The notes under the pieces are model-generated. The model was given only the letters and a program-made list of their open reading frames with translations, made no database searches and was not told the origin of the DNA. The translations under genes and the position numbers were made by a program. Of a DNA stretch of 42,342 bases, positions 1 through 42,342 are shown piece by piece (position 1 is the stretch's first letter; the number at the start of each line of letters is the position of its first letter). This DNA comes from a virus. Where the stretch lies: the IMG/VR virus record IMGVR_UViG_3300013122_000002, positions 1 to 42,342 of that record. The stretch is one strand, 5' to 3'.

Positions 1-123
1 TTTAGGTATCAATGAGGATTGAATTATGGATTCTATGCAAGCATTTGCGAATGGTGAAGCTAATCGAGGAAAGGAGTTAATGGTTTTTGATTGGGAAAAA
101 GCCGTTAATCTAATTAATGAAAA
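1..123. repeat. terminal direct repeat, copy A (identical to 42220..42342)
   Basis: Read directly: bases 1-123 recur at 42220-42342. This implies a 42,219-bp circular or permuted unit opened at an arbitrary point. Confidence 0.95.
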
Positions 124-376
124 AGGCTATAAAGAATGCGGCGCAGGCCTTAAAGATGATTATGAGTGGACTGCTGGAAATATTTTAACTAATGGAAAGC
201 CTGTAACTGATGATTATACTTATCTAGCATCAACTTGGGCTACCCCACAACTAATTGTTTACTCAGATGATGGTTATGAGATTATTCATGAAATCGATTG
301 CTTTATCATGGAAAGTGAAACAAATTGGGGCGCAGACACAAAGTTCCCAGAAGATCAACAGAAGCGATTAAAATAG
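26..376 (+). CDS. hypothetical accessory protein (cargo of leader-RNA cassette 4)
   Basis: 116-aa ORF. GAGGA SD lies 7 nt upstream (seen in the 42233-42237 copy). Followed by terminator 394-419. No family recognised. Confidence 0.7.
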   Translation: MDSMQAFANGEANRGKELMVFDWEKAVNLINEKGYKECGAGLKDDYEWTAGNILTNGKPVTDDYTYLASTWATPQLIVYSDDGYEIIHEIDCFIMESETNWGADTKFPEDQQKRLK

Positions 377-419
377 ATTTAAATGCTAAACTAAGCCTAT
401 CGAAAGATGGGCTTTTTTT
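374..419 (+). repeat. 3' cassette-boundary repeat (homologous to 35233..35276), contains the terminator
   Basis: TAGATT(T)AAATGCTAAACTAAGCC..GATGGGCTTTTTTT is shared almost base for base with 35233-35276. Confidence 0.85.
394..419 (+). terminator. intrinsic terminator
   Basis: 8-bp stem AGCCUAUC/GAUGGGCU (one G.U pair), GAAA loop, T7 tract. Confidence 0.75.
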
Positions 420-3477: not shown

Positions 3478-4115
3478 TGTTTGATGTTAAAGATACTTTG
3501 ATGTCGCAGTATGCAAACAGTCCCGCTATTGTCGGGATTATTGATGGTATAGCAGATGCGCTAGACCCTGAGCATACGGCAGAGGAATTTTACTCGATGT
3601 TATGGCGTTTAAGCTCCGCAACATCGTGGGGCTTGGATATTTGGGGGCGCATTGTTGGTGTAAACCGAAATGTGCAGATGAGCGACCCCGATGCAATCAC
3701 ATTTGGATTTAAGACTGATCCTGTATCCCAAAACTTCACGCCTTTTAATGTCGCTCCATTTAGCGCGGGCAGCGCAAAATTTAACACCTATCGCCTGCCA
3801 GATAACCTCTATAAAGAATTAATCATTATTAAGGCTGCTTCAAATATTCTTTATGCCACAGCACCAAATATTAATAAGTATCTTCAGATGATTTTTACTG
3901 AAAAAGCTTATTACTACATCACTGGTCACATGACAGCAAAGTATATTTTTGAGTTTGAATTAACGCCATTCCAGCGCTTAATTGTCTACACTTTGAAGTT
4001 ATTACCTGAGCCATGCGGTGTGTTAATCTCTTATGAAGAAAAACCAATTGCAGAGGTATTCGGCTTTGACGGTACAGAGTATGAAACATTTGATTACGGA
4101 GTATTCATTCAATGA
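3477..4115 (+). CDS. baseplate/tail-fibre connector protein (DUF2612-like)
   Basis: 212 aa. The N-terminus (YANSPAIVGIIDGIADALDP...GLDIWGRIVGVNR) resembles DUF2612 proteins, which follow baseplate J. Confidence 0.65.
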   Translation: MFDVKDTLMSQYANSPAIVGIIDGIADALDPEHTAEEFYSMLWRLSSATSWGLDIWGRIVGVNRNVQMSDPDAITFGFKTDPVSQNFTPFNVAPFSAGSAKFNTYRLPDNLYKELIIIKAASNILYATAPNINKYLQMIFTEKAYYYITGHMTAKYIFEFELTPFQRLIVYTLKLLPEPCGVLISYEEKPIAEVFGFDGTEYETFDYGVFIQ

Positions 4116-5020
4116 GCAATCCTGAAATTATGTGGTCTAAAGCATTTGCTTGGAACGCCACGAATAAAAACACGATACAAGAGGAGCGGCAGCCAGCACA
4201 AGACGTTCAAGATGCCACGCTCAATGATGGCTTCCCGCTTATCACAATGACCCCACAAGATGCGGGCGGCATTGCTCCAAACGGTCAAGACATGAACGGC
4301 GCTCTTTATGCCATTAGTTCGAACATGGTTCATCGTCAAAAAGGGCTACGCATTCAGTTTGACCCTGCCTACGCTGCGAAAATTGGCGGTTATGATCAAG
4401 GCTGTGTTCTTGCATCAAACGACTACACACGTGATTACATTAGCCTTATCCCGAACAACTTAACCGATCCAAACGGCAGCGGCACTGCGGGACGTTGGGC
4501 TATATATTCGGGTGCTGGCTCTATCGCTTCTGCAACTGCGAGTATTGCGGGGATTGTTAAGATTGTTGATAGTTTATCGAGTACCGCAACGGATGCGGCA
4601 TTAACAGCCAATCAAGGTAAGACGCTAGGAGATCGAACGCAGCAAGCCACTACCACAAATGTAGGTATTAGTCGATTTGCTAATGCGTCAGAGGTTGCAA
4701 ATAAAAGCAATGTTAGCGCCGCGGTTACTCCATCGAATGCCGCCGCAATTGCACAAAGCACAGACTTGGGAGTTGGGCAGACTTGGCAGAATGTTTCAAG
4801 ATCATTAGGATCAACATACACAAATAACACTGGTCGACCAATTCAAATTTCAATCTTTGCATCTGGAAGTTCTGGATCAGCCCTAGCTTTGATTATTGAT
4901 GGTCTTGAACTCCTGAGAACCAACCAATCTGCAACAATCCATGTAACTGCCGTAATTCCCAACGGTTCAAGCTATACCATGACTGGTGCTATACTGAGTA
5001 ATTGGTCGGAGCTTAGATAG
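4112..5020 (+). CDS. tail fibre protein (short)
   Basis: 302 aa. N-terminal GFPLITM..GG..P.G.DMNG..GGY anchor motif. Two fibre repeats (AGIVKIVDS...ALTANQ and VGISRFANASEV...AVTPSN). Confidence 0.75.
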   Translation: MSNPEIMWSKAFAWNATNKNTIQEERQPAQDVQDATLNDGFPLITMTPQDAGGIAPNGQDMNGALYAISSNMVHRQKGLRIQFDPAYAAKIGGYDQGCVLASNDYTRDYISLIPNNLTDPNGSGTAGRWAIYSGAGSIASATASIAGIVKIVDSLSSTATDAALTANQGKTLGDRTQQATTTNVGISRFANASEVANKSNVSAAVTPSNAAAIAQSTDLGVGQTWQNVSRSLGSTYTNNTGRPIQISIFASGSSGSALALIIDGLELLRTNQSATIHVTAVIPNGSSYTMTGAILSNWSELR

Positions 5021-9386: not shown

Positions 9387-9779
9387 TTAGAACGGTAATT
9401 CTTCTGAGTCATCTACTGGATTAGGTTGCGCCTGTGGCTTGGGCTGTGCATAGCCTTGCTGTTGTGGAGCTTGTTGCTGACCACTCTGCGGACTGCCTGC
9501 CAAGTTACAAGAATATGAACGCACTTCCATATATGTTTTGCCGTTATATTCGCGTGTGGATAGCTCACCTACAACCTGAACCATTTGTCCTTTTTTCAGG
9601 TAATCCACAAAATTTGACTTTGCTTGACCACCCCAAATTGAGACGGTGAACCAATTTACCGACTTTTTATCACCAAAGCCGACATTTTGAGCCACGCTAA
9701 ATTTTGCAAGTGCTGTGCCGTTTACGTCTTTTAACTCAACATCACCGCCAAGTTTTCCTAGAATTGTTACTGTGGTCAT
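9387..9779 (-). CDS. ssb: single-stranded DNA-binding protein
   Basis: OB-fold N-terminus, Q/P-rich linker, acidic tip DDSEELPF. Confidence 0.9.
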   Translation of the reverse strand: MTTVTILGKLGGDVELKDVNGTALAKFSVAQNVGFGDKKSVNWFTVSIWGGQAKSNFVDYLKKGQMVQVVGELSTREYNGKTYMEVRSYSCNLAGSPQSGQQQAPQQQGYAQPKPQAQPNPVDDSEELPF

Positions 9780-10401
9780 TTTGTTTCACCTTACTTGATA
9801 ATAATTTGTTTAAATAATCTTGAGCCAAAATAGCCTTATTGACCATCTGTTGCTCTTTCTTTTCGCACCGTTGTAGTGATGCGATTGCTACGCGCTTGTA
9901 CTCTTCGACATGGTCTACAATGTGCCAGTCCTCAGGCTCGCCACGCTTGATTAAATGCTCAGGCGTGGACACCAAACAATAAGCCAATTCGGCATTATCA
10001 ACATTATACAAATGCATATAACAACGTAACTGCCATTCGTAAAGCTTGGATGCAGTCAAGAACATTGGAAAGGTCTTTTTGCTGTAAGCAGTTTTAATGT
10101 CGATTACAAGGCTTTTTTCTTGGTCGAGTATGTCACACTCGCCTGTCATTAAATCGTTGCTGATACGTGCTGTATTTTTCATATAGAACGTATCTTGGTT
10201 TAGGTTATACAGATCAATCGAAATGTCTTCGCACACCTTACCTTTTTCGATTTCAAAAGTGTTTAAGTTTTCGCGCCAATCTAAAATATACTGACTGGCT
10301 AATTTTTCAAGATATGTTTTCGCACCATCGGCAAGCGTATCTTTTTCAGGATACGCCATGATATTCCCGATTGATGATGCGCGTAAGAGGATATTAGGCA
10401 T
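9742..10401 (-). CDS. YqaJ/lambda-Exo-like PD-(D/E)XK recombination exonuclease
   Basis: GECDILD...VIDIKT (D..D/E.K) and YEWQLRCYM motifs. Adjacent to ERF. Its 3' end overlaps ssb by 38 nt. Confidence 0.7.
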   Translation of the reverse strand: MPNILLRASSIGNIMAYPEKDTLADGAKTYLEKLASQYILDWRENLNTFEIEKGKVCEDISIDLYNLNQDTFYMKNTARISNDLMTGECDILDQEKSLVIDIKTAYSKKTFPMFLTASKLYEWQLRCYMHLYNVDNAELAYCLVSTPEHLIKRGEPEDWHIVDHVEEYKRVAIASLQRCEKKEQQMVNKAILAQDYLNKLLSSKVKQNDHSNNSRKTWR

Positions 10402-11080
10402 CTTGGTTTACCTCGCGACCAACACGCATCATTTGCTCATTTGTTAAATCACGTGCATTGAATAGCTTTTCAAGCGTATAAGTTTTTGCATTAATCGCTT
10501 GGATGCCTTTTGTCAGTTCTTCGTCACTGATCGGCTTTTTAGCAGATTCAACTTTTGCATTTGTTGCAAAACCGTTGTTGTCATCATCCGCAGTGGTTGC
10601 AATATTTAAAATGCCGCATAGCGTGTAGCGTTTACCGTAGCTGATTGCACCCCCGATTGCCTGCATTGGATTCATGCCTTTAGTTACCGCTTCGGTCGGA
10701 AGTGTCAAGGCGTTTTCGATCATGTGGCCGCCTTTGTGTCGAAGTTGACAGGTTACAGTCACGAAGCCTTTTTCTAGTTGCTCGTTATTAAACGACACAC
10801 TAAAACCATGCTCAGATAGAATCGGGCGAACAATGTTTACAATATCTTCAAGCGGTGTATAGGTTGTGCTGTACGATTTCTTTGTGTGAGAAATCACAGG
10901 GATTTTACGACTCATTACCGAAAAGTCGTTATTAAAATCAATGATGGCTTGCTGTGCCATGACTTCTTTTTGCATTGCAAGCATGTCTTTTAATACAGAC
11001 ATATCCATGTTAGGCGTGGTTAGCGCCTGTTGCATCAACTGCAAAAAACCGTTGTCTTGTTTGGTTGCTAACTCGTTCAT
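10394..11080 (-). CDS. erf: ERF-family single-strand annealing protein
   Basis: YTPLEDIVNIVRPILSEHGFSV ... QAIGGAISYGKRYTLCGILNI matches the ERF core pattern. Confidence 0.8.
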   Translation of the reverse strand: MNELATKQDNGFLQLMQQALTTPNMDMSVLKDMLAMQKEVMAQQAIIDFNNDFSVMSRKIPVISHTKKSYSTTYTPLEDIVNIVRPILSEHGFSVSFNNEQLEKGFVTVTCQLRHKGGHMIENALTLPTEAVTKGMNPMQAIGGAISYGKRYTLCGILNIATTADDDNNGFATNAKVESAKKPISDEELTKGIQAINAKTYTLEKLFNARDLTNEQMMRVGREVNQDA

Positions 11081-19007: not shown

Positions 19008-19038
19008 CCCCGACCACCTCCATGATCGGGGTTTTTTT
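19008..19038 (+). terminator. intrinsic terminator
   Basis: CCCCGA...TCGGGG stem followed by T7. Confidence 0.6.
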
Positions 19039-19132
19039 ATATAAGAAAAACAAATATTCATATCAGATAATTGAATTGGATAATATTTATAAAAATTATT
19101 ATATTTGTTCTATCGAAACACAAGAGAAGAAA

Positions 19133-21159: not shown

Positions 21160-21468
21160 ATGGAAATTAATGGTTTTAAGATTTTTGAAAATACCGATGA
21201 GGCTGTTTATGCAGCAAAGTCAAAAGAAGATGTTTATGATTATTTTGTTGAAATGTATGGGTCAACAGAAGATTGCCAGAGCCAAACAAAAGAGCAATTT
21301 ATTGATGAGCTAATTGAAATTGAGGTCGATAGTGATTTAGCGCAAAGAATCAGAACTTGGCATAATGATGACACTGGAGAAATAACAGAAAGCACTTATT
21401 ATGATGAATATAAGAAAGTTTCCGAGAAGAATGATGGCGTTGATGTTATTGCTTATTTGACATGGTGA
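21160..21468 (+). CDS. hypothetical, strongly acidic protein
   Basis: 102 aa from ATG 21160 with a GAGGTG SD. Very D/E-rich. Confidence 0.6.
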   Translation: MEINGFKIFENTDEAVYAAKSKEDVYDYFVEMYGSTEDCQSQTKEQFIDELIEIEVDSDLAQRIRTWHNDDTGEITESTYYDEYKKVSEKNDGVDVIAYLTW

Positions 21469-21470
21469 TT

Positions 21471-21962
21471 ATGAAAATTAACATTCCAGCAGACACAAAA
21501 CAAACAGTAATTTTAAACATAGCGAGTAATGAAATGATCGAACTAAAAAACGTAGTAAACGAAGCGAAAATTAAACTAGGCTTGAGTAATTCTGAGCTAT
21601 CTAAATTGATTGGGCATTCACGAAACTATATCAGCGAAACTTTGCGGATCGGAGCAAGCACTGAGAAACAGGCGGAAATTGTTAGCAAGATTAAAGAAGC
21701 CGTAGCGGTTGAGTTGGTTAGCCGTGGGGTGGGCATGTCGTGCGATGACGAGCAGAAACAAAGCGTCCGTATGTTGAATATGGAAGTTGAGCAGTTGAAG
21801 CAGGCTAAAAAGCTAACTAACAATGACCTAGCAATCGCAAATCGTGACAAGAATTTCATGAAGAAGAAATTGCAGGATAAAAACTTGCTTATCAACTGGC
21901 TTGTTGCATCGAATGTATTTTTTATTCTGTTTTTAGCGTCTAAGTGTGCGGGGTGGGTGTGA
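21471..21962 (+). CDS. HTH protein with a coiled-coil and a C-terminal transmembrane anchor
   Basis: LGLSNSELSKLIGHSRNYISETL (XRE-like HTH), a K/E/Q-rich middle region, and a C-terminal LINWLVASNVFFILFLASKCAGWV. Confidence 0.6.
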   Translation: MKINIPADTKQTVILNIASNEMIELKNVVNEAKIKLGLSNSELSKLIGHSRNYISETLRIGASTEKQAEIVSKIKEAVAVELVSRGVGMSCDDEQKQSVRMLNMEVEQLKQAKKLTNNDLAIANRDKNFMKKKLQDKNLLINWLVASNVFFILFLASKCAGWV

Positions 21963-26241: not shown

Positions 26242-26267
26242 ACCCACTGTAACAGGTGGGTTTTTTA
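26242..26267 (+). terminator. intrinsic terminator after the portal gene
   Basis: CCCAC..GTGGG stem followed by T6. Confidence 0.7.
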
Positions 26268-26362
26268 ATACATAAGAAAAAATGATAAGTATATTAGAAT
26301 TATGAATTGTACTAAAAACTGTGGACACAGTATTATAAGAATATATAAAGCGAGGTGTGATT

Positions 26363-26548
26363 ATGAAAGTAAAAATCAAAAGCTTTAACGGTGAGCTTCC
26401 TGATTATTTGACCGAGGATAAAGAGTATGAATTTAAAAAACTAAAAGAATACTGTGGATTAGTAAAGGTTGATAATGGTCTTGAGTATTTTACTTATTTG
26501 AATGGTTCATGTCATTTAAACGGCGGGTCATGGGAGATTGCTGATTGA
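26363..26548 (+). CDS. small protein, MK(V/I)KIKSFNG family, copy 1
   Basis: 61 aa. Paralog of 29136..29327 (shared MKxKIKSFNGxLPxYL...HLNGGSWE). GAGGTG SD. Confidence 0.6.
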   Translation: MKVKIKSFNGELPDYLTEDKEYEFKKLKEYCGLVKVDNGLEYFTYLNGSCHLNGGSWEIAD

Positions 26549-29128: not shown

Positions 29129-29135
29129 GGTTTTT

Positions 29136-29327
29136 ATGAAAATTAAGATAAAAAGCTTTAATGGTGATTTACCTTGCTACTTAAGTGAAAATAAAGAATA
29201 TGAGATAGAATATTTAAGCGGAGATTCCATCTTTATTACAACTGGATTTGACGATCCAGAGTATATATCGGTGACAAAAGAGAATTGCAAGCATCTAAAT
29301 GGTGGAAGCTGGGAGAATGCAAAATGA
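29136..29327 (+). CDS. small protein, MK(V/I)KIKSFNG family, copy 2
   Basis: 63 aa from ATG 29136. Paralog of 26363..26548. GTGAGG SD. Confidence 0.6.
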   Translation: MKIKIKSFNGDLPCYLSENKEYEIEYLSGDSIFITTGFDDPEYISVTKENCKHLNGGSWENAK

Positions 29328-29860: not shown

Positions 29861-29914
29861 TAGGATATGGTGTAAATTAGACTCTTAAATGGGTCTTTTT
29901 TATTGCCTGCCGTT

Positions 29915-29923
29915 TGCTATAAT
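29915..29923 (+). promoter_or_regulatory. extended -10 promoter TGCTATAAT (scaffold/capsid genes)
   Basis: TGC plus perfect TATAAT, 26 nt upstream of ATG 29949. Follows a weak hairpin. Confidence 0.45.
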
Positions 29924-29948
29924 CAATTTTATTTATAAGGCGTTTACT

Positions 29949-31106
29949 ATGCCAAAATACGCTATGGACTTCCAAACCCTAACCACGGCGCGGCACAAAG
30001 ACAACAATGGACATCTAATCGTTGATCGAACCTGCATTACCAAAGCTGCGATTAACCCATATCGAGGTCAAGAAATCCCAAACTGGCAAGCTTTAGGATT
30101 GGATCCGAATAAGGTTTATATGCTATTGCGCTGCCCTGCTGAGCTGCAACGCGCATTGCCTACATTTCAGGGTTTGCAACTGTTAGAGCGTCACACACCA
30201 GTTTCATCCGAAGAACCTGAGAAAGAATCCACAGTTGGTAGCATTGGCACTGTTGTTGAAATGGACGGGGACAATGTATACTCTAGCTTACGTGTATATG
30301 ATCAGAACGCAATCGACCTGATTGAGTCTGAGAAGTTAAACCAGTTATCTGCGGGATATGCGTATACTGCTGATATGACAGGCGGTGAATGGAACGGGGA
30401 GCACTATGACGGTGTGATGCGTAATATTCACGGTAATCACGTTGCTTTAGTTGAACGTGGTCGTATCGGTAAAGATGCTATTATTGCAGATGAGATGCCT
30501 AACGAAATTGAGGAATTTTTAATGAGCAAGAAAATTGCCCTGAAAAAAGGCTCGTTATCTAAACTCCAAGAACAACTTGGAATGGATTCAGCCGAAGAAC
30601 TGAAAAAGACCATTATTGCAGTTGTGGGGCAATTAGCTCATGACGAAGATGTGGAAGAAAAGGAAGCTGAGGACGAGGACGACGAGAAGAAGACCGACGC
30701 CGAAGATGAAGAAGTAATCGAAGTCGCTGAAGATGAAGATGAAGATGATGATGATAAAAAGTCTGACGCAGAAGATGAAGACGACAAAGACGACAAAAAG
30801 CAAGCTATGGACGCTGCTATGATCGAATCTAACGCTGTTGCTAAAGTAACCGCTCTATTTGAAGCACGCGAAAAGGTTAAGCCGATTGTTGGTCAGATTG
30901 CTTGCGATAGCGCGGAAGAAGTTTATAAAACTGCTTTGGCTAAATCAGGCGTGTCTACTAAAGGCGTTCATCCTTCTGCATACGGTGCTATGGTTGATCT
31001 TGTGTTGCAAGGCAAACAAAACACTCCAAACATTGCCCAAGACTCAGCTTATGCAAGTGCGTCTACGGGCTTGAAATCAATCACTGGTCATATTCGTAAG
31101 GGGTAA
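29949..31106 (+). CDS. DUF2213-like scaffold/prohead-protease protein with an acidic C-terminal region
   Basis: From ATG 29949 (MPKYAMDFQ...). ..SAGYAYTADMTGGEWNGEHYDGVMRNIHGNHVALVERGRIG matches the DUF2213 core. A long E/D/K low-complexity stretch follows. Confidence 0.75.
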   Translation: MPKYAMDFQTLTTARHKDNNGHLIVDRTCITKAAINPYRGQEIPNWQALGLDPNKVYMLLRCPAELQRALPTFQGLQLLERHTPVSSEEPEKESTVGSIGTVVEMDGDNVYSSLRVYDQNAIDLIESEKLNQLSAGYAYTADMTGGEWNGEHYDGVMRNIHGNHVALVERGRIGKDAIIADEMPNEIEEFLMSKKIALKKGSLSKLQEQLGMDSAEELKKTIIAVVGQLAHDEDVEEKEAEDEDDEKKTDAEDEEVIEVAEDEDEDDDDKKSDAEDEDDKDDKKQAMDAAMIESNAVAKVTALFEAREKVKPIVGQIACDSAEEVYKTALAKSGVSTKGVHPSAYGAMVDLVLQGKQNTPNIAQDSAYASASTGLKSITGHIRKG

Positions 31107-33955: not shown

Positions 33956-33964
33956 TGCTATAAT
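33956..33964 (+). promoter_or_regulatory. extended -10 promoter TGCTATAAT of cassette 1
   Basis: Starts 4 nt after the upstream stop codon. Exactly 6 nt separate the hexamer from G33971, the first base of the leader RNA. Confidence 0.6.
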
Positions 33965-33970
33965 AATTAT

Positions 33971-34034
33971 GCGGATAGAGTGACGGCTCGAAAACCAATT
34001 AACCTGATTGGCTTCCGCATTAATATTTCAGGTT
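33971..34034 (+). ncRNA. structured 5' leader RNA (three-way junction + pseudoknot), copy 1 of 4
   Basis: P1 GCGGA/UCCGC. J1/2 UA. P2 GAG-UGACGG-CUC. J2/3 GAAAA. P3 CCAAU-UAACCUG-AUUGG. J3/1 CU. The L3 loop AACCUG pairs with CAGGUU at 34029-34. Confidence 0.8.
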
Positions 34035-34053
34035 ATTGATAGAGGTATCAAGT

Positions 34054-34635
34054 ATGAAATTAGTCCATGGTGTTGGTTTTAATGATAGAAAATATATAAC
34101 AAGAATTGATGGGAAGAACACAGTTCAATACTCATTATGGTTTAATATGGTTGCTAGATGCTACTCTCCACATATGCTTAAAAATCTACCAACATATAGA
34201 GATTGCTTTCTATCTGATAACTTTCTTGATTTTTCATATTTCCATGAGTGGTTTGATAATCAGCATGGGCGAAAGCTGTTCGACCCAAATATAGATAAAG
34301 ATCTAATCTTTAAAGGAAATAAAATATACAGTGAGGATAATTGTTTTATTCTTCCTCCTGAAGTAAACGGATTGTTTATTAAAAGCAACTCCAAGAGGGG
34401 GCTTTATCCAATTGGCGTTAATTTTAGGAAAAATGATAATAAATTTGTCGCACAAGTAAACGCAATGGGGAAGCGAAAGACTATAGGGTACTCAAAAGAT
34501 CCTATGGAATGTTTTTTAATGTACAAATACGCTAAAGAAAAAGAAATTAAGCGTGTAGCTAGTGTGTGGAGAGATCAAATATCTCCTAAAGCTTATGACT
34601 TGCTTATGAGTTATCAAGTTGAGATAACTGATTAA
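34054..34635 (+). CDS. AP2-domain / degenerate HNH_3-like putative homing endonuclease
   Basis: 193 aa from ATG 34054. GVGFND..Y..W.NMVARCY; IDKDLIFKGNKIYSEDNCFILPPEVN; AP2-like GVNFRKNDNKFVAQV...IGYSKDPMECFLMYKYA. Confidence 0.6.
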   Translation: MKLVHGVGFNDRKYITRIDGKNTVQYSLWFNMVARCYSPHMLKNLPTYRDCFLSDNFLDFSYFHEWFDNQHGRKLFDPNIDKDLIFKGNKIYSEDNCFILPPEVNGLFIKSNSKRGLYPIGVNFRKNDNKFVAQVNAMGKRKTIGYSKDPMECFLMYKYAKEKEIKRVASVWRDQISPKAYDLLMSYQVEITD

Positions 34636-34662
34636 TATAAGAAATACTAATTATCTTTTTAA
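34636..34662 (+). repeat. 5' cassette-boundary repeat (homologous to 42115..42140)
   Basis: TATAAGAAATACTAATTATCTTTTTAA versus TATAAGAAATACTGATTATTTTTTAA: one substitution and one indel. Confidence 0.85.
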
Positions 34663-34674
34663 GAGCAATATTAG

Positions 34675-34680
34675 TATTAT
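34675..34680 (+). promoter_or_regulatory. -10 box TATTAT of cassette 2
   Basis: Exactly 6 nt upstream of G34687. Same distance (38 nt) from the boundary motif as in cassette 4. Confidence 0.5.
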
Positions 34681-34686
34681 GAGTAA

Positions 34687-34749
34687 GTGCCTAGATTAGC
34701 TATCGAACATCGGGAAAGCCTACCGACTGGCACACCATATTTTTAGGCT
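34687..34749 (+). ncRNA. structured 5' leader RNA, copy 2 of 4
   Basis: P1 GUGCC/GGCAC. J1/2 UA. P2 GAU-UAGCU-AUC. J2/3 GAACA. P3 UCGG-GAAAGCCUA-CCGA. J3/1 CU. The L3 loop AGCCUA pairs with UAGGCU at 34744-49. Confidence 0.8.
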
Positions 34750-34766
34750 GTAACTGAGGTAGTTAT

Positions 34767-35231
34767 ATGTTTTATAAAGTTGAGTGTGAAGAAACTTTAT
34801 CCTTGATTGATGCATTTATGGAAAAGCGTAATGCATTATATGATCAAGTTAAATTGATTTGTGAAAAGTACGGATTTGAGATGCATCAAACGCATGACAG
34901 TATTCAGTTTGGCATCCAGTTTTACAATATGGTGGCAAACCCAAATACTGAAATTGATAAATCTTTATGGAAGACGAGAAAACAAAAGAATGGGTATTTA
35001 TGCTTATTGCCACGCGCCACAGCAAAGGATCATAAGAAGGAATATGACGCCCTCACCCCAAAACAAGTTGATTATTCAGAGCTAACAAAACTATTAATCA
35101 AGGATGAATTGCCTTGGAATAAGTCTTATGGATACCGCTACAAGAAAGGCGAGTATTTTATGTTTGAAACATCACTACCTGTATCTGATATTGCTATCGA
35201 GATTCTTGGCAGCGAATACAACAAAGAATAA
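34767..35231 (+). CDS. hypothetical accessory protein (cargo of cassette 2)
   Basis: 154-aa ORF with a GAGG SD 7 nt upstream. No family recognised. Confidence 0.7.
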   Translation: MFYKVECEETLSLIDAFMEKRNALYDQVKLICEKYGFEMHQTHDSIQFGIQFYNMVANPNTEIDKSLWKTRKQKNGYLCLLPRATAKDHKKEYDALTPKQVDYSELTKLLIKDELPWNKSYGYRYKKGEYFMFETSLPVSDIAIEILGSEYNKE

Positions 35232-35232
35232 C

Positions 35233-35276
35233 TAGATTAATGCTAAACTAAGCCCTATCAATGATGGGGCTTTTTT
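35233..35276 (+). terminator. 3' cassette-boundary repeat with an intrinsic terminator
   Basis: TAGATTAATGCTAAACTAAGCCCTATC-AAT-GATGGGGCT followed by T6. Homologous to 374-419. The downstream ATG 35277 abuts the T-tract. Confidence 0.8.
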
Positions 35277-38746: not shown

Positions 38747-40881
38747 TGGCTCATATTGTAGATGCAATCATGGTAACGCTTGGGCTTGATACATCAAAGT
38801 ATACAGCTCAGGCAGAGAATGCCATTAAGACCGATGCACGGCTCGAAAAAAGCCTAGATGGTGTCGAGAAGAAAGGCGGTGCGGTTTCCAAAAACTTTGA
38901 GGGGCTAGCCAACGCTGTAAAGGGTGCTGCTAAGGTTTTTGCGTCTTTGGCTGCTGCGACAGGTATCATCCGATTTTTGCAAAACGTAGCGGAAGAAACG
39001 CGCCAAGCCAATGAGGAAATGCTAAAGCTTCAATCTTCACTTGGTCTAACTGCTGAAAAAATCAATGGTATGCGTGGTGCGGGTGCTGCTTTAGGCGGTA
39101 CAGCCGAGGGCATGACAAATTCAATGAAAGGCCTTAACAAAGGCATGAATGATTTTGTTGTGAAAGGTGATACTTCCCTGCTTCCATTTATGAACGCACT
39201 AGGCGTTTCAATGGTAGACGGACAAGGAAAACTTCGGGACGTAGACAAGGTGATGCTTGATCTATCTGATTCATTCTCAAAAATGAACAGCGAACAAGCT
39301 TACGCACTCGGTCAAGACATGGGTTTCGATGAGGGAACGATTGCAGCATTGATGCAGGGTCGTGACGCCATGAAAGAAATGTCCGAATATCACGCCAAAA
39401 TGTACACATCATCGAAAGAGGAATTAGCAGCAAGCCGAGAGCTATCCAAGAATCAGGCGCAATTATCTGCACATTGGGCAAGCATGAAATTGATGATCGG
39501 TAATGCGATTATCCCCCTACTTGTAAAGCTAACCAACTTTGCTAAGGCATTTTTTGAGTTTTTACAAGATCATCAAAAGACTGTTAAGAACGTATTTGAA
39601 GCAATGGCATTTGTTTTGGGTGCTGTGCTTATTCCGTTATTTGGCAAAGCATTGATTGCAGCACTAGCATTTATTGCACCGTTTGCTCCATTTATTTTAG
39701 TTGTCACAGCAATAGCCGCTGCATTTACCTTGCTTTATGACGACTACAAAGTATGGGCAGAGGGTGGTCAATCATTATTTGATTGGGGTAAATTCTCCGA
39801 CCTTATTGACGGTGCAAAACTTTCCGTTGAAAGCTTGACCAAAGGTTTTGGAGAGCTTGCCGATAAAGTAATGGCTGAGGTTATCCCTACACTCAAAGGC
39901 TATGCGTCAATCATTCAGAAGCTATTTAGCGGTGACTTTGCAGGAGCATCGGCAGAAGCTAAAGAAATGTTTGCTGAGTTTGGTTCGCGTGCTAAGGATG
40001 CTATTAGCCCTGCATGGAATAAAGCTGCTGACTTTATGTTAGGTGGTGCGTTTAAGATGGGCGACAACCAATCCCCTGCTGTTGGTGGTGGCTCATTCAA
40101 GAAATCAAACCACGGTAGCACCTTAGCACTAAGCGAAAGCGATATTATTGATATTATGAAAGTAACATCAACAGAGGTTGTCTCAGGGCTTAAAAACGGG
40201 AATAGCGAAAAGCAAGCAGCGGGTGTAATTGATACTATTCTTAACCGAGCTGCGTCAGGGAAATTTGGCAAAGGGGTGCGTGGTGTTGCAAATCAGCGTT
40301 GGGCGTTTTCCGCTATTAATGCGCCACGAAAAGGAGCTTATGGAAGTGTGCAAAATGTTCCTATGGATAAAGTATCACCTAGTATGCAGGCTTTTGTGCG
40401 CGACTACTTGAGAAAACGCGCCGAGGGAATGCCATCGAGTGTTGGTGAAAACTTATCTTATGCAAATCCAAATTATTTAGGGGAAGCTAGTTCAGCCACT
40501 AAAAAATGGGTTGCAGAGGTTGAAAAACAAGCCAAAGCGTCAGGTCAGATTTTCGGCTCAGGAAAAGCTATTCATGTTCATGGAACACCATCGGCAGACC
40601 GCAGCAAGATGCCCTCTCCATTCAATGTGGCTATTCCAGATCAACCATCCAACCTACAACAAGGCGCAGCACAAGCACAAGGCATGGTTCAGCAAAGCGC
40701 TACACCAAGAAAGCTTTATAACAGCAAAGGTCTACAATCCGATATGCAAAGCCGCTCAGTTGATGTGAAAATGGGTGACTTGAATATCTATACAACAGCT
40801 TCAAGCGTGTCGGGCATTACTTCCGATGCAATGCGTGGAGTTGAAGCAAGCCTTAACAATCTTGGCACAAGTATGGCATAA
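38746..40881 (+). CDS. tape measure protein with a C-terminal cell-wall-hydrolase-like domain
   Basis: 711 aa, GTG start. Coiled-coil-type N-terminal half and a hydrophobic block (FVLGAVLIPLFGKALIAALAFIAPFAPFILVV). The stretch AAGVIDTILNRAASGKF...NQRWAFSAIN resembles the SleB/Hydrolase_2 family. Confidence 0.8.
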   Translation: MAHIVDAIMVTLGLDTSKYTAQAENAIKTDARLEKSLDGVEKKGGAVSKNFEGLANAVKGAAKVFASLAAATGIIRFLQNVAEETRQANEEMLKLQSSLGLTAEKINGMRGAGAALGGTAEGMTNSMKGLNKGMNDFVVKGDTSLLPFMNALGVSMVDGQGKLRDVDKVMLDLSDSFSKMNSEQAYALGQDMGFDEGTIAALMQGRDAMKEMSEYHAKMYTSSKEELAASRELSKNQAQLSAHWASMKLMIGNAIIPLLVKLTNFAKAFFEFLQDHQKTVKNVFEAMAFVLGAVLIPLFGKALIAALAFIAPFAPFILVVTAIAAAFTLLYDDYKVWAEGGQSLFDWGKFSDLIDGAKLSVESLTKGFGELADKVMAEVIPTLKGYASIIQKLFSGDFAGASAEAKEMFAEFGSRAKDAISPAWNKAADFMLGGAFKMGDNQSPAVGGGSFKKSNHGSTLALSESDIIDIMKVTSTEVVSGLKNGNSEKQAAGVIDTILNRAASGKFGKGVRGVANQRWAFSAINAPRKGAYGSVQNVPMDKVSPSMQAFVRDYLRKRAEGMPSSVGENLSYANPNYLGEASSATKKWVAEVEKQAKASGQIFGSGKAIHVHGTPSADRSKMPSPFNVAIPDQPSNLQQGAAQAQGMVQQSATPRKLYNSKGLQSDMQSRSVDVKMGDLNIYTTASSVSGITSDAMRGVEASLNNLGTSMA

Positions 40882-40882
40882 T
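40874..40882 (+). promoter_or_regulatory. extended -10 promoter TGGCATAAT of cassette 3
   Basis: Overlaps the tape measure stop codon. Exactly 6 nt lie between the hexamer and G40889. Confidence 0.5.
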
Positions 40883-40888
40883 TAATAC

Positions 40889-40951
40889 GTGGCTAGGGTA
40901 GCTCCCGAAAATCGTGCAACCTACACGACCGCCACGTTAATTTTTTAGGTT
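40889..40951 (+). ncRNA. structured 5' leader RNA, copy 3 of 4
   Basis: P1 GUGGC/GCCAC. J1/2 UA. P2 GGG-UAGCU-CCC. J2/3 GAAAA. P3 UCGUG-CAACCUA-CACGA. J3/1 CC. The L3 loop AACCUA pairs with UAGGUU at 40946-51. Confidence 0.8.
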
Positions 40952-40967
40952 ATTTAAGGTGAATGTT

Positions 40968-41189
40968 ATGACAGTTACGGTAAAAGTTGTTGACATAGAT
41001 AAGATTAAAAAAACAGTAACAATTGAAGCTTGGTGTGATCGTGGAGGGCATAGAGTTATGCGAACCCCATTTAGTTATAAGCAGCAATCAAAGAAATCAA
41101 TTGAGTCAATGTTGAGAAAAGAGCTGAAAGCGTTTCAACAACCAGTATGGGGTGGTTTTTGCGTTCAATTCTATTGCAGCGTTGATTGA
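40968..41189 (+). CDS. hypothetical 73-aa accessory protein (cargo of cassette 3)
   Basis: ATG 40968 lies 6 nt after an AAGGTG SD; GTG 40959 is possible. MTVTVKVVDIDKIKKTVTIEAWCDRGGH.... Confidence 0.6.
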   Translation: MTVTVKVVDIDKIKKTVTIEAWCDRGGHRVMRTPFSYKQQSKKSIESMLRKELKAFQQPVWGGFCVQFYCSVD

Positions 41190-41197
41190 TGTAAACT

Positions 41198-41219
41198 AGC
41201 CCTCAATAGAGGGCTTTTT
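41198..41219 (+). terminator. intrinsic terminator of cassette 3
   Basis: AGCCCTC-AATA-GAGGGCT followed by T5. Confidence 0.75.
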
Positions 41220-41844: not shown

Positions 41845-42119
41845 CCACACTAGCCATTGACCTACAACAAACAGCCAATCAAAACTTGCAAGTTACACTA
41901 GGTGGGAATGTCTACCGATTGACGCTAAATACCCGACTTGATGAACTTTATATGAGTATTGAAAAAAACGGTGAGCCTGTTATTTATAATCGCATTTGCC
42001 AAAACTTAAACCCAATCGAGGAGGGTTTTGTCTTTGTTGATTTGGATGGCAGCAACAATCCGACTTTCGACCAATTCAATGATCGTTTTGTTTTGACTTG
42101 GACGGATGGGCTTATATAA
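41841..42119 (+). CDS. small tail/baseplate protein
   Basis: 92 aa, ATGA-coupled to the upstream gene. Confidence 0.6.
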   Translation: MTTLAIDLQQTANQNLQVTLGGNVYRLTLNTRLDELYMSIEKNGEPVIYNRICQNLNPIEEGFVFVDLDGSNNPTFDQFNDRFVLTWTDGLI

Positions 42120-42140
42120 GAAATACTGATTATTTTTTAA
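42115..42140 (+). repeat. 5' cassette-boundary repeat (homologous to 34636..34662)
   Basis: TATAAGAAATACTGATTATTTTTTAA. Overlaps the TAA stop of the upstream gene. Confidence 0.85.
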
Positions 42141-42150
42141 TTAAGTAAAT

Positions 42151-42159
42151 TGTTATTAT
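42151..42159 (+). promoter_or_regulatory. extended -10 promoter TGTTATTAT of cassette 4
   Basis: Exactly 6 nt lie between the hexamer and G42166. Confidence 0.55.
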
Positions 42160-42165
42160 TGTTTT

Positions 42166-42226
42166 GTGGCTAGAGTCATTCTCGAAAGCTATGCAACCTA
42201 CATAGTTGCCACATCATATTTTAGGT
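42166..42226 (+). ncRNA. structured 5' leader RNA, copy 4 of 4 (3' end lies in the terminal repeat and equals bases 1-7)
   Basis: P1 GUGGC/GCCAC. J1/2 UA. P2 GAG-UCAUU-CUC. J2/3 GAAAG. P3 CUAUG-CAACCUA-CAUAG. J3/1 UU. The L3 loop ACCUA pairs with UAGGU at 42222-26. Confidence 0.8.
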
Positions 42227-42244
42227 ATCAATGAGGATTGAATT

Positions 42245-42342
42245 ATGGATTCTATGCAAGCATTTGCGAATGGTGAAGCTAATCGAGGAAAGGAGTTAAT
42301 GGTTTTTGATTGGGAAAAAGCCGTTAATCTAATTAATGAAAA
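42245..42342 (+). CDS. 5' part of the same gene as 26..376 (duplicate created by the terminal repeat)
   Basis: Identical sequence to 26-123, truncated by the window end. Confidence 0.9.
   Translation, partial: MDSMQAFANGEANRGKELMVFDWEKAVNLINE

Follow-up and report, generated by a model that had tools for sequence, protein, structure and literature searches.

Accessory genes within the late operon of a 42-kb myophage are probably exchanged through portable regulatory linkers

Two places in the late structural operon of a phage genome carry closely similar sequences around different ORFs, which raises the question of whether these flanks delimit genes that are exchanged between phages. The window, i.e., the whole 42,342-nt stretch analysed here (IMG/VR record IMGVR_UViG_3300013122_000002), comes from an uncultured ~42-kb myophage that is a distant relative of the Acinetobacter AP22-like phages, with a major capsid protein ~52% identical to theirs. 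An earlier note on this DNA had placed one of the units, cassette 4, across the two ends of the window. Comparison of the ends revealed 123 bp of identity, indicating that they are artificial and represent an assembly overlap of a circular or permuted 42,219-bp genome. Cassette 4 is thus contiguous as proposed, running from 42115 to 42219 and then from 1 to 419. The early-region genes that we examined have replication and recombination functions, with no integrase among them.

The late operon holds four self-contained units, including cassettes 2 and 4, each laid out as a sigma-70-type promoter (by sequence consensus) whose -10 is good and in several cases extended, a structured leader, an accessory ORF and, usually, a terminator (Table 1). 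Cassette 2 lies between the genes for Neck1 and the head protein phrog_1912, and cassette 4 between those for the Pam3-gp18-like plug and the baseplate hub gp41, confirming the late structural position claimed previously. The common 5' boundary that had been described is present at full length in both. Its shared sequence, TATAAGAAATACTRATTAT, has just two copies in the window, starting at 34636 and 42115, while shuffling gave an expectation of 0.05 matches with 3 mismatches allowed and two or more matches in 0 of 100 shuffles. The plug gene's stop codon (TAA, 42117-42119) lies within the first bases of the cassette 4 box, and the cassette 2 box directly follows the stop codon of the cassette 1 HNH gene. 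The identical offset of the -10 element was likewise borne out, since TATTAT begins 39 nt past the boundary's first base in cassette 2 (at 34675) as well as in cassette 4 (at 42154), and the leaders, which the note had considered common to the two, are homologous when scored with a family-specific covariance model. The ~45-nt common 3' boundary was recovered as 86% identity across ~44 nt (35233-35276 versus 374-419), including the exact 16-mer AATGCTAAACTAAGCC; intrinsic terminators were called at both boundaries, each directly followed by the ATG of the next structural gene (hub, 420; phrog_1912, 35277). As stated before, the cargo ORFs between these flanks are unrelated (BLASTP E=1.4). Pfam and PHROG searches gave nothing for the 116-aa ORF of cassette 4, but it is one of a widespread family, with more than 199 homologues.

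Table 1. Positions of the cassettes, their parts and other features in the window
Feature	Position	Strand	Details
Recombination module	9387-11080	-	SSB 9387-9779; exonuclease 9742-10401; Erf-like single-strand annealing protein 10394-11080
Cassette 1	33956-34635	+	extended -10 TGCTATAAT 33956-33964; int-alpA leader 33969-34034; HNH ORF 34054-34635
Cassette 2 5' boundary box	34636-34662	+	TATAAGAAATACTAATTATCTTTTTAA, 27 nt
Cassette 2 -10 region	34672-34680	+	TAGTATTAT
Cassette 2 leader	34687-34749	+	75.1 bits, own model
Cassette 2 leader P1	34687-34691 with 34729-34733	+	
Cassette 2 leader P2	34694-34704	+	
Cassette 2 leader P3	34710-34726	+	loop L3 34714-34722 (AGCCUA)
Cassette 2 site 1	34744-34749	+	UAGGCU
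Cassette 2 cargo ORF	34767-35231	+	154 aa; phrog_2314 (unknown function); GC 35%
Cassette 2 3' boundary	35233-35276	+	pre-terminator box AATGCTAAACTA; terminator hairpin 35250-35272; T6 run
Cassette 3	40874-41219	+	int-alpA leader 40887-40951; 73-aa ORF 40968-41189; terminator 41198-41219
Cassette 4 5' boundary box	42115-42140	+	TATAAGAAATACTGATTATTTTTTAA, 26 nt; ~-51 to -26 of cassette promoter
Cassette 4 extended -10	42151-42159	+	TGTTATTAT; ends 6 nt 5' of leader helix P1
Cassette 4 leader, three-way junction	42166-42228	+	80.7 bits, own covariance model
Cassette 4 leader P1	42166-42170 with 42208-42212	+	
Cassette 4 leader P2 hairpin	42173-42183	+	
Cassette 4 leader P3 hairpin	42188-42206	+	loop L3 CAACCUA 42194-42200
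Cassette 4 pseudoknot partner, site 1	42222-42226	+	UAGGU
Cassette 4 small hairpin	42228-42241	+	UCAAU-GAGG-AUUGA; Shine-Dalgarno in loop
Cassette 4 cargo ORF	26-376	+	116 aa; GC 37% vs 39-44% in flanking genes
Cassette 4 3' boundary	374-419	+	stop codon; pre-terminator box AATGCTAAACTA; hairpin 393-414; T7 run
Assembly overlap	42220-42342	.	identical to bases 1-123

The other two units differ in their signals. Cassette 1 encodes a predicted HNH homing endonuclease of 193 aa, counted from the ATG, which matched phrog_953 (HNH endonuclease, E=3.7e-63) and gave no match in a Pfam search. The unit lacks its own terminator and continues into cassette 2, with no terminator between them. The cassette 3 promoter (TTAACA-18-CATAAT with an upstream TG) matches 10 of 12 consensus positions and overlaps the stop codon of the tape-measure gene. 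No -35 element was recognisable in the promoters that carry the 5' box, and a simple promoter scan left cassettes 2 and 4 uncalled; a TG precedes TATTAT in the cassette 4 promoter. The 5' boundary is the most conserved, distal part (~-51 to -26) of one promoter type, a position that suggests it probably serves as an UP-like element or a regulator-binding site. The 3' boundary is a terminator module consisting of the conserved AATGCTAAACTA box and a G/C hairpin, and in three of the four units an intrinsic terminator abuts the ATG of the next structural gene. The G-rich 3' arm of the hairpin is probably also the putative ribosome-binding site of that gene; in cassette 4, its G-run lies where the ribosome-binding site of the hub gene is expected.

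In layout and location the units resemble the morons of lambdoid and other tailed phages, reportedly described by Juhala et al. in 2000 and Hendrix et al. in 2000. As in morons, an extra gene is located between genes that are adjacent in relatives, within a late operon, with a promoter and terminator of its own (recognised by consensus only, and with cassette 1 lacking the terminator) and with an atypical base composition (cargo GC of 32.5-37.4% compared to 39.4-45.8% in the flanking genes). They differ from morons in that the flanks are common to different cassettes, junctions and phages and come with a common family of leader RNA. Classical moron accretion would offer another account, in which rare illegitimate recombination adds the genes and the flanks are conserved for their function in the host operon rather than for mobility. 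Conservation of the promoter and terminator could indeed reflect function alone, and classical morons need no conserved flanks (PMC2839356). Furthermore, the terminator type mostly follows the downstream structural gene, with GCCCTCAATAGAGGGC at every tape-measure|Dit junction, a pattern more in keeping with something fixed in the host operon than with the travelling end of a cassette. The position of the 3' module, directly before the next ATG and probably supplying the ribosome-binding site there, also favors this account. Terminators with a similar box and hairpin follow unrelated 5' regions in Vibrio phage 1.174.O and in further contigs; with a broader pre-terminator pattern, 7 of 102 matches ran on into a terminator.

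Comparison with relatives bears directly on this account. The earlier note had named boundaries confined to one genome, with no cargo variation, as the result that would speak against exchange. Instead, the 5' box was found in ~10 further independent phage contigs from IMG/VR and metagenomes (11 true matches of 104 in the metagenome search), with varied cargo, and it lies 51 nt upstream of the leader wherever a leader follows. At the plug|hub junction, the 116-aa ORF of the window is replaced in relatives by a 149-aa ORF, an HNH endonuclease or a 198-aa ORF, and further inserts there are a ~380-nt non-coding stretch and a C5 methylase. At the Neck1|head-protein junction, the cassette 2 promoter and leader drive three unrelated ORFs. 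From the 5' box to the ATG, the window is 96-98% identical to contigs L038 and L039, although the neighbouring phrog_1912 gene reaches only 61-62% identity in DNA (44% in protein) and the cargo shows no more than background similarity. An identical 19-nt box is present at three or more different junctions. Of the six matches to the 3' 16-mer in IMG/VR, three (L017, L018 and L020) were chance occurrences inside coding sequence, and a search of species-representative genomes for the 5' box returned only chance matches in unrelated AT-rich taxa, with no prophage and no host assignment.

The same cargo was also found elsewhere. Acinetobacter phages XC1 and QH4 encode a protein with 87% identity to that of the cassette 2 ORF, but at a different junction and behind a different leader type. 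A 149-aa DUF2213-like ORF is present in both L025 and phage Brutus, and a Rha-like ORF occupies the tape-measure|Dit junction of L022 but the Neck1 junction of L038. Between close relatives, breakpoints map to the 5' box or its immediate 3' side, the start codon, the pre-terminator box and the T-tract/ATG; endpoints shared by several independent replacements are the box, start codon and pre-terminator box. Mosaics were seen within the regulatory parts as well. The XC1 leader combines a cassette 3-like junction with a cassette 4-like tail and Shine-Dalgarno region, contig 3300027851_000053 has a plug|hub promoter that mixes the cassette 2 and cassette 4 types, and in Brutus a relic Shine-Dalgarno region is fused to the pre-terminator box. 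Some relatives carry no insert at all: plug and hub abut in L026-L036, which are 11 distant prophage relatives, and in L019 the same holds for the tape-measure and Dit genes. Pairs of a terminator followed by a promoter ~90 nt away occur only where two cassettes adjoin in relatives.

Repeated reuse of the same endpoints is not expected of illegitimate recombination. An identical box at three or more junctions, in phages whose neighbouring genes share 44% protein identity, together with independent replacements with common endpoints and with promoters and leaders that are hybrids of different types, makes moron accretion an unlikely explanation. The finding of the same promoter piece and terminator with different genes between them in relatives points to swappable, self-contained cassettes, and, since the pieces are near-identical among diverged phages and at different junctions, they appear to act as portable linkers. 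We therefore favor, as the probable though by no means certain reading of these sequences, that the late operon carries four moron-type units exchanged via portable regulatory linkers. Recombination inside the linkers would replace, insert or delete cargo while leaving the operon intact. The cassette exchange proposed in the earlier note thus gains support both from the same flanks around different cargo and from the same cargo at other places. Its boundary sequences need a more careful wording. Mosaic breakpoints do fall there, from which we infer recombination at the boundaries; however, they are regulatory modules, namely a promoter upstream element and a terminator that probably also carries the ribosome-binding site of the next gene, and as recombination sites they are candidates only. 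Short-homology recombination is the probable route of exchange, with the phage's own Erf, exonuclease and SSB as the likely engine. An Erf/Exo pair efficiently recombines short, diverged homologies (PMC3945230).

Homing endonucleases might contribute in another way. In intronless homing, the products of free-standing HNH or GIY-YIG genes cut the DNA of relatives that lack the cassettes or bear other cargo during co-infection, and repair copies the endonuclease together with the neighboring cassettes, a mechanism established for the T4 seg and mob genes (PMC2988022). Conserved flanks would, on that account, be co-converted tracts. The cargo of cassette 1 has the features of a free-standing homing endonuclease, as a predicted HNH ORF between genes and outside an intron or intein, and it adjoins cassette 2. 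Its homologues, 40-45% identical, sit at other junctions, HNH genes occur at three of these junctions in relatives, and homing endonucleases are the commonest cargo behind the leader (at least 11 of 73 cargo proteins scanned). However, most cassettes are without an endonuclease, cassettes 3 and 4 have none nearby, and homing predicts long identical tracts reaching into the flanking genes, where we observed short islands of identity. We consider it improbable that homing alone accounts for the cassettes. It is nonetheless compatible with, rather than exclusive of, exchange through regulatory linkers, and double-strand breaks made by homing endonucleases, as frequent cargo, may help that exchange.

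The note had likened the cassettes to the PeSLs of T4-type phages (Arbiol et al. 2010, PMC2839356; Comeau et al. 2014, PMC4122927). The likeness is apt in several respects. In both, short conserved promoter sequences (putative ones here) and terminator sequences surround non-essential ORFs, and these ORFs are inserted, deleted or replaced from one close relative to the next, with endpoints in the conserved motifs. Crossovers fall in the stretches that separate the -10, Shine-Dalgarno sequence, ATG and stem-loop. In both, each unit also has its own transcription signals, here predicted from sequence, so that swaps leave the neighboring genes undisturbed. It does not extend to the composite motif or the location. 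The PeSL fuses promoter and stem-loop terminator in a ~100-bp motif, whereas here they are at opposite ends of the unit, and PeSLs lie in hyperplastic early regions of T4-like genomes, whereas these cassettes stand singly or in pairs between essential late structural genes of a ~42-kb phage that is distantly related to AP22 and is not T4-like. A 60-nt structured RNA leader also belongs to the units here. If our reading is correct, PeSL-type shuffling of regulatory linkers would extend beyond the T4-like phages to essential late operons of small myophages, and the older moron concept would gain a concrete, testable exchange mechanism. For the engineering of Acinetobacter-type therapeutic phages, the junctions and modules would also point out where inserts are safely tolerated in nature and which expression signals could be used.

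The leader itself, which the note had regarded as an added structured element, is present as described but probably belongs to an Rfam family already on record, int-alpA (RF02996; Rfam type 'sRNA'), from the screen of Weinberg et al. 2017. With a gathering score of 35.8 bits, the Rfam model detected the leaders of cassettes 1 and 3 (44.7 bits each), scored cassette 2 under threshold (31.2 bits) and gave no report for cassette 4 even at E<=10 on a 243-nt region; it also missed an obvious leader at the XC1 and QH4 loci. The leaders of cassettes 2 and 4 are AT-rich variants. As AT-rich copies are lost by the Rfam filters or model, we built one specific to this family; it scores all four window leaders at 71-86 bits and also finds Rfam-positive copies in Pseudomonas and Enterobacter phages. 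All four fit a P1/P2/P3 junction with the conserved bases UAG, CGAAA and YU, the same three-way junction as in int-alpA, and cassette 4 departs from cassette 3 through compensatory substitutions, both in P2 (GGG/CCC to GAG/CUC) and in P3.

To characterize the family, we used 80 non-redundant copies from more than 120 viral contigs. The junction begins at about the predicted transcription start, and a -10 hexamer precedes it in 71 of the 80, most commonly 6 nt 5' of P1. In 74 distinct sequences, 97.9% of cells were paired, with 202 double-sided changes, compared to 32-59% paired in slid-register controls, and covariation was strong in P2 and P3. Most of these sequences had been collected by a pattern fixing P1 and the junction bases, so the conservation of those bases in this set is circular. 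Folding energies of single leaders were unremarkable (z of -0.3 to -2.8); the evidence for the structure is covariation, not stability.

Two features of the leader are additions of the present analysis. First, the P3 loop pairs with a site 6-12 nt past P1 (site 1), forming a pseudoknot, as judged by covariation: five or more contiguous Watson-Crick pairs with the leader's own site 1 were found in 79% of cases versus 5% with swapped tails, and duplex energies were -6.7 versus -2.6 kcal/mol. Second, in many copies the same loop is complementary to the leader's own Shine-Dalgarno window, with five or more contiguous pairs in 61% versus 10% when swapped and energies of -6.4 versus -4.0 kcal/mol. 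In the four window leaders, pairing of the loop with the true Shine-Dalgarno sequence is weak (-4.6 to -4.9 kcal/mol, near the swapped -4.0). In cassette 4, the Shine-Dalgarno sequence lies in a small hairpin that ends 3 nt 5' of the start codon at 42245 (= position 26); the signal for such hairpins is modest (mean z of -0.96).

The folded junction, as single-stranded DNA, or the 5' box could in principle be an integrase or transposase site. Models for site-specific or transposon-like mobility of this kind are integron attC sites and the ends of IS200/IS605. The name int-alpA derives from a neighborhood of integrase and alpA genes, two TnpB-like cargo ORFs are present in our wider set, and some 'RNA motifs' have turned out to be attC sites (Weinberg et al., PMC5737381). 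Nevertheless, the element is always on the sense strand, at a fixed ~6 nt after the -10 and ~35 nt before the start codon, and its P3 loop covaries with the Shine-Dalgarno region, all properties of an mRNA leader. Moreover, neither an integrase nor a transposase accompanies the cassettes of the window, an attC site with an integron integrase was not seen among the genes examined, and breakpoints fall at several positions rather than at one fixed site. We regard site-specific mobility as very improbable. Here int-alpA appears as a promoter-proximal leader directly upstream of accessory ORFs among late structural genes, rather than as a stand-alone sRNA near int or alpA, and this orphan motif thereby gains a context as the leader of mobile accessory genes.

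Literature searches on int-alpA and RF02996 found no functional study, and the motif is unmentioned in the main text of Weinberg et al. 2017 (PMC5737381). Several candidate functions were considered and rejected. A hammerhead-like self-cleaving ribozyme, suggested by the junction with GAAA, has neither a CUGAUGA core nor an Rfam ribozyme match. P1 and the U-run do not form an attenuator or small-RNA terminator: a spacer of 4-6 nt separates them, and the U-run, which is absent from GC-rich relatives, belongs to the pseudoknot partner. A leader peptide does not fit either, as the upstream ATG seen in the tails of cassette 4 and XC1 varies in frame and presence, and GGA is missing from many of the loop/site pairs, as would not be expected of CsrA-type sites.

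Homing endonuclease RNAs of the T4 family (I-TevI, segB and mobE; PMC2988022) provide a parallel, as selfish or accessory genes embedded in essential operons with their own promoter and an RNA structure involving the ribosome-binding site. In T4, the hairpin forms only on read-through transcripts, since the late promoter is inside it (PMC2988022). Such discrimination was rejected here: the predicted start site precedes the entire leader, which is thus contained in read-through and own-promoter transcripts alike, and its structure is a conserved junction with a pseudoknot, not a simple hairpin. As a best guess from these patterns, we suggest a leader that controls cargo translation, by setting its level or by switching it, and that also stabilizes the 5' end.

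The preQ1-II and SAM-II riboswitches use pseudoknots to sequester the Shine-Dalgarno sequence. The int-alpA leader is similar in that a loop or pseudoknot would compete for the ribosome-binding region beside a highly conserved core that could bind a ligand or factor; it differs in that its miscellaneous cargo gives no metabolic clue to a ligand. More speculatively, int-alpA-class leaders might be a widespread, portable two-state element of translational control in the operons of many Proteobacteria phages, a possibility we hold only tentatively. The leader would travel with selfish or accessory cargo such as homing endonucleases, antirepressor-like genes, methylases and ORFans, and its P3 loop would toggle between a decoy site (pseudoknot formed, ribosome-binding site free) and the ribosome-binding site itself, with the invariant junction core binding a ligand or factor conserved across hosts that sets the state. 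Given the weak pairing in the window leaders, the two-state idea rests mainly on the GC-richer relatives. Leader, promoter box and terminator module might then form a natural 'plug-and-play' expression cassette and, if so, recombination could place any gene into an essential operon with buffered expression. With the covarying pseudoknot and the complementarity to the ribosome-binding region, int-alpA function becomes directly testable by reporters and structure probing.

A scan of the window revealed four units built to one design within the late structural operon. Each carries a predicted promoter, a leader RNA and an accessory ORF, usually followed by a terminator.

Positions and parts of the four units, with the pseudoknot pairs of their leaders
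Unit	Position	Promoter	Leader	Cargo	Terminator	P3 loop	Pseudoknot partner
1	33956-34635	extended -10	33969-34034	HNH endonuclease	none	AACCUG	CAGGUU
2	34636-35276	5' box + TATTAT	34687-34749	154 aa	35250-35272	AGCCUA	UAGGCU
3	40874-41219	TTAACA-18-CATAAT with TG	40887-40951	73 aa	41198-41219	AACCUA	UAGGUU
4	42115-419	5' box + TGTTATTAT	42166-42226	116 aa	393-414	ACCUA	UAGGU

The earlier note had described units 2 and 4 as unrelated ORFs within common boundaries, and this observation was confirmed. Bases 1-123 of the window exactly repeat its last 123 bases, indicating that the window ends overlap through assembly and that the phage genome, 42,219 bp long, is circular or permuted. Unit 4 spans these artificial ends as one uninterrupted unit (42115-42219, then 1-419), as had been claimed. 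The shared 5' boundary, hereafter the 5' box (TATAAGAAATACTRATTAT), occurs at 34636 and 42115 and nowhere else in the window, where about 0.05 chance matches are expected even with three mismatches. In both units TATTAT begins at the same offset, 39 nt past the first base of the box, and the 3' boundaries share an exact 16-mer and 86% identity across ~44 nt. The two ORFs are indeed unrelated (BLASTP E=1.4).

The flanking genes are late structural genes, again as proposed. The junctions occupied lie between Neck1 and the head protein phrog_1912, between the tape measure and a Dit-like gene, and between a Pam3-gp18-like plug and the baseplate hub gp41. GC content is 32-37% in the cargo and 39-46% in the flanking genes. 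Because the plug and hub genes are directly adjacent, with no insert, in 11 distant prophage relatives, and the tape-measure and Dit genes are directly adjacent in one relative (L019), we regard the units as insertions of the moron type. By sequence they qualify as morons, accessory genes with their own promoter and terminator, and they have in addition shared flanks and a shared leader, features absent from classical morons. In unit 1, the mechanical call of the HNH ORF begins at TTG 34036, within the Shine-Dalgarno hairpin; the true start is likely ATG 34054, which has AGAGG upstream.

The leader is an RNA of the catalogued Rfam family int-alpA (RF02996), of which we found no functional treatment in the literature searched. 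With the Rfam model, whose gathering score is 35.8, units 1 and 3 gave leader scores of 44.7 bits each and unit 2 gave 31.2 bits; the unit 4 leader was not reported. A family-specific covariance model made from these copies unites all four, bearing out the claim that units 2 and 4 share a leader. The same model recovers Rfam-positive copies from Pseudomonas Detrevirus phages, where they lie within the tail operon, and from Enterobacter phage Tyrion, together with leaders of the Acinetobacter phages XC1, QH4 and Brutus. In IMG/VR, a pattern scan matched at least 120 contigs, and our statistics come from 80 non-redundant copies with an ORF downstream, among the matches listed. A -10-like hexamer precedes P1, the first helix of the leader's three-way junction, in 71 of the 80, most commonly by 6 nt, so that the RNA would start at about the transcription start. 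The median distance from P1 to the start codon is 35 nt and the median ORF is 157 aa; among the 75 complete ORFs, 40 have a terminator-like hairpin after them.

Strong covariation marks the other two helices, P2 and P3, in which 97.9% of cells are paired and 202 changes are double-sided, compared with 32-59% paired in slid-register controls. The invariance of P1 and the junction bases within this set is circular, since the search pattern fixed them for most copies. Our analysis adds two structural features to int-alpA. First, the P3 loop complements a site 6-12 nt past P1, forming a pseudoknot with at least 5 contiguous Watson-Crick pairs in 79% of copies versus 5% when tails are swapped (-6.7 versus -2.6 kcal/mol); the pairs in units 1-4 show plain covariation. 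Second, the loop is complementary to the Shine-Dalgarno window in 61% of copies versus 10% swapped (-6.4 versus -4.0 kcal/mol). With the real Shine-Dalgarno of units 1-4 the pairing is weak (-4.6 to -4.9 kcal/mol), and a small hairpin holding the Shine-Dalgarno in its loop is frequent yet weak (mean z of -0.96). The most economical hypothesis is that the leader acts in 5'-end protection and translation control. It would shield the mRNA 5' end, because P1 pairs the first bases transcribed, and might set or switch cargo translation through a competition for the P3 loop between the ribosome-binding region and the site past P1, a decoy. A host-conserved factor or ligand may act at the conserved junction core. 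The finding would carry more weight should the leader turn out to control mobile phage genes in general.

A search of relatives and metagenomes of the kind suggested in the earlier note found the 5' box in some ten further contigs of uncultured phages, independent of one another. Whenever the box has a leader downstream, it lies 51 nt upstream of P1. The predicted promoter of which it covers about positions -51 to -26 has a reasonable -10 and no recognisable -35. Across nine promoter variants the box is better conserved than the adjoining spacer, and we infer that it acts as an UP-like element or binds a regulator. A ~47-nt motif with two intergenic copies in the window (…ATAAGAAAAA-N17-TnAGAnnAT…GAATTG; 19032-19078 and 26263-26309) resembles a promoter class and has a ATAAGAAA core in common with the box, in a different register to the -10.

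The 3' boundary is a terminator family. Both copies were called intrinsic terminators and run from a (T)AATGCTAAACTA box through a G/C hairpin, with compensatory variants in its stems, and a T-run to the ATG of the next structural gene, for which the G-rich 3' arm occupies the expected ribosome-binding-site position. The family also occurs in Obolenskvirus phages, Vibrio phage 1.174.O and about seven further contigs, behind unrelated upstream regions, and its hairpin type mostly tracks the downstream gene. The conserved pre-terminator box is 12 nt long. The Vibrio phage module, near-identical (GATTAATGCTAAACTAGCCCTATC…GATGGGGCTTTTTTATG; L273:1195-1246), lies 3' of an accessory ORF and upstream of a neck gene; the host order of this phage differs.

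Variable cargo between conserved boundaries, as the earlier note envisaged, was seen at the plug-hub and Neck1 junctions, and promoter, leader, cargo and terminator are distributed as a mosaic among relatives. At plug-hub, five close relatives share the plug 3' end and the 5' box and then part at differing points. Homology stops within the box in L022, before a ~380-nt non-coding insert; right after it in L008, before another leader type and an HNH gene; and at the start codon in L025, where promoter and leader are 96% the same, the ORF differs (149 aa) and the 3' boundary resumes at 93%. At Neck1, the unit 2 promoter and leader are 96-98% identical in L038 and L039, where the ORFs that they drive (107 and 159 aa) show no relation to the cargo in the window and the adjoining structural gene has only 44% protein identity. 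Between tape measure and Dit, the window's 73-aa ORF gives way in relatives to a metallophosphatase, to a Rha-like gene, to a DUF551 gene accompanied by an 86-aa ORF, or to nothing. In XC1 and QH4 the unit 2 ORF (82% identical in DNA, 87% in protein) is found upstream of Neck1, behind a leader whose junction is unit-3-like and tail unit-4-like; Brutus encodes, at the XC1 position, a homologue of the 149-aa ORF from L025.

Several loci are unusual. In Brutus (L042:2995-3065), downstream of the homologue of the 149-aa ORF, a relic leader tail and Shine-Dalgarno region (AAATGAGGATTGAGAAAT) are joined directly to the pre-terminator box (TTAATTAATGCTAAACTAGCCC...), which looks like the deletion scar of a second cargo gene. 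The ORF-free L022 insert (4100-4495; IMG/VR 3300033120_000027), which takes the place of a cassette between a truncated 5' box and a terminator, contains a 14-nt inverted repeat as well as two pairs of direct repeats (GTTCACTNNANCAAAGTTA and TAATTTTGRRRAGTGAAT); it had no Rfam match and may represent a non-coding RNA. A mosaic cassette in an unusual gene order (L037:1-1300; IMG/VR 3300020050_002493) combines the final 57 nt of a gene resembling the tape measure, where identity to the window is 98% as against 72% farther upstream, with a leader of unit 3 type, a Shine-Dalgarno hairpin of unit 2 type, a novel ORF of 94 aa and the terminator of unit 2. The phrog_1912 gene immediately downstream has 98.5% identity to that of the window. 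The two ends of the 43-kb contig IMG/VR 3300027851_000053 (L006, reverse strand, bases 1-460, and L023:4400-4517) overlap in the 5' box and leader and disagree upstream, one having the plug gene before the box and the other the last 75 tape-measure codons plus 58 nt. This discord reflects either an assembly join induced by a repeat or variation in the population, the cassette occupying a different junction in the variant.

The comparative evidence supports the earlier note's reading that cargo is exchanged at the boundary sequences; the recombination itself we infer. Homologous recombination within short conserved regulatory sequences would exchange the cargo, these sequences serving as linkers, as proposed for PeSLs, the promoter-early stem-loop cassettes of T4-type phages (PMC2839356, PMC4122927). 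The likeness to PeSLs suggested previously thus holds for the mode of working but not for three defining features: the phage is not T4-like, the cassettes do not lie in a hyperplastic region, and promoter and terminator are not combined in a single composite motif. Recombination gains support because the genes of the window include those for an Erf-like annealing protein, an exonuclease and an SSB, and because homing endonucleases are the commonest cargo behind the leader, accounting for at least 11 of 73 scanned cargo proteins. For short and diverged homologies, the recombination efficiency of an Erf/Exo pair is close to that of lambda Red (PMC3945230). By analogy with T4 intronless homing, which uses break-induced repair (PMC2988022), such repair probably contributes to cassette exchange. 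Other cargo includes TnpB, antirepressor-like proteins, a methylase, DUF551 and many unknowns. Among int-alpA-type leaders at IMG/VR loci, two precede TnpB/Cas12f-like ORFs (OrfB_IS605) and others precede GIY-YIG, NUMOD and DUF4379 nucleases, indicating a strong association of the leader with selfish nuclease genes.

Elsewhere in the window, direct repeats (MKVKIKSFNGELPDYL... and MKIKIKSFNGDLPCYL...; 26361-26430, 29134-29203 and 21464-21484), 74% identical over 70 nt, overlie the starts of small early or middle ORFs, which are a small paralogous gene family of the non-structural region. Tandem-like acidic codon repeats (GAAGATGAAGA…; 30642-30781) within a 405-aa ORF (29889-31106) form an array typical of scaffolding or head-decoration proteins.
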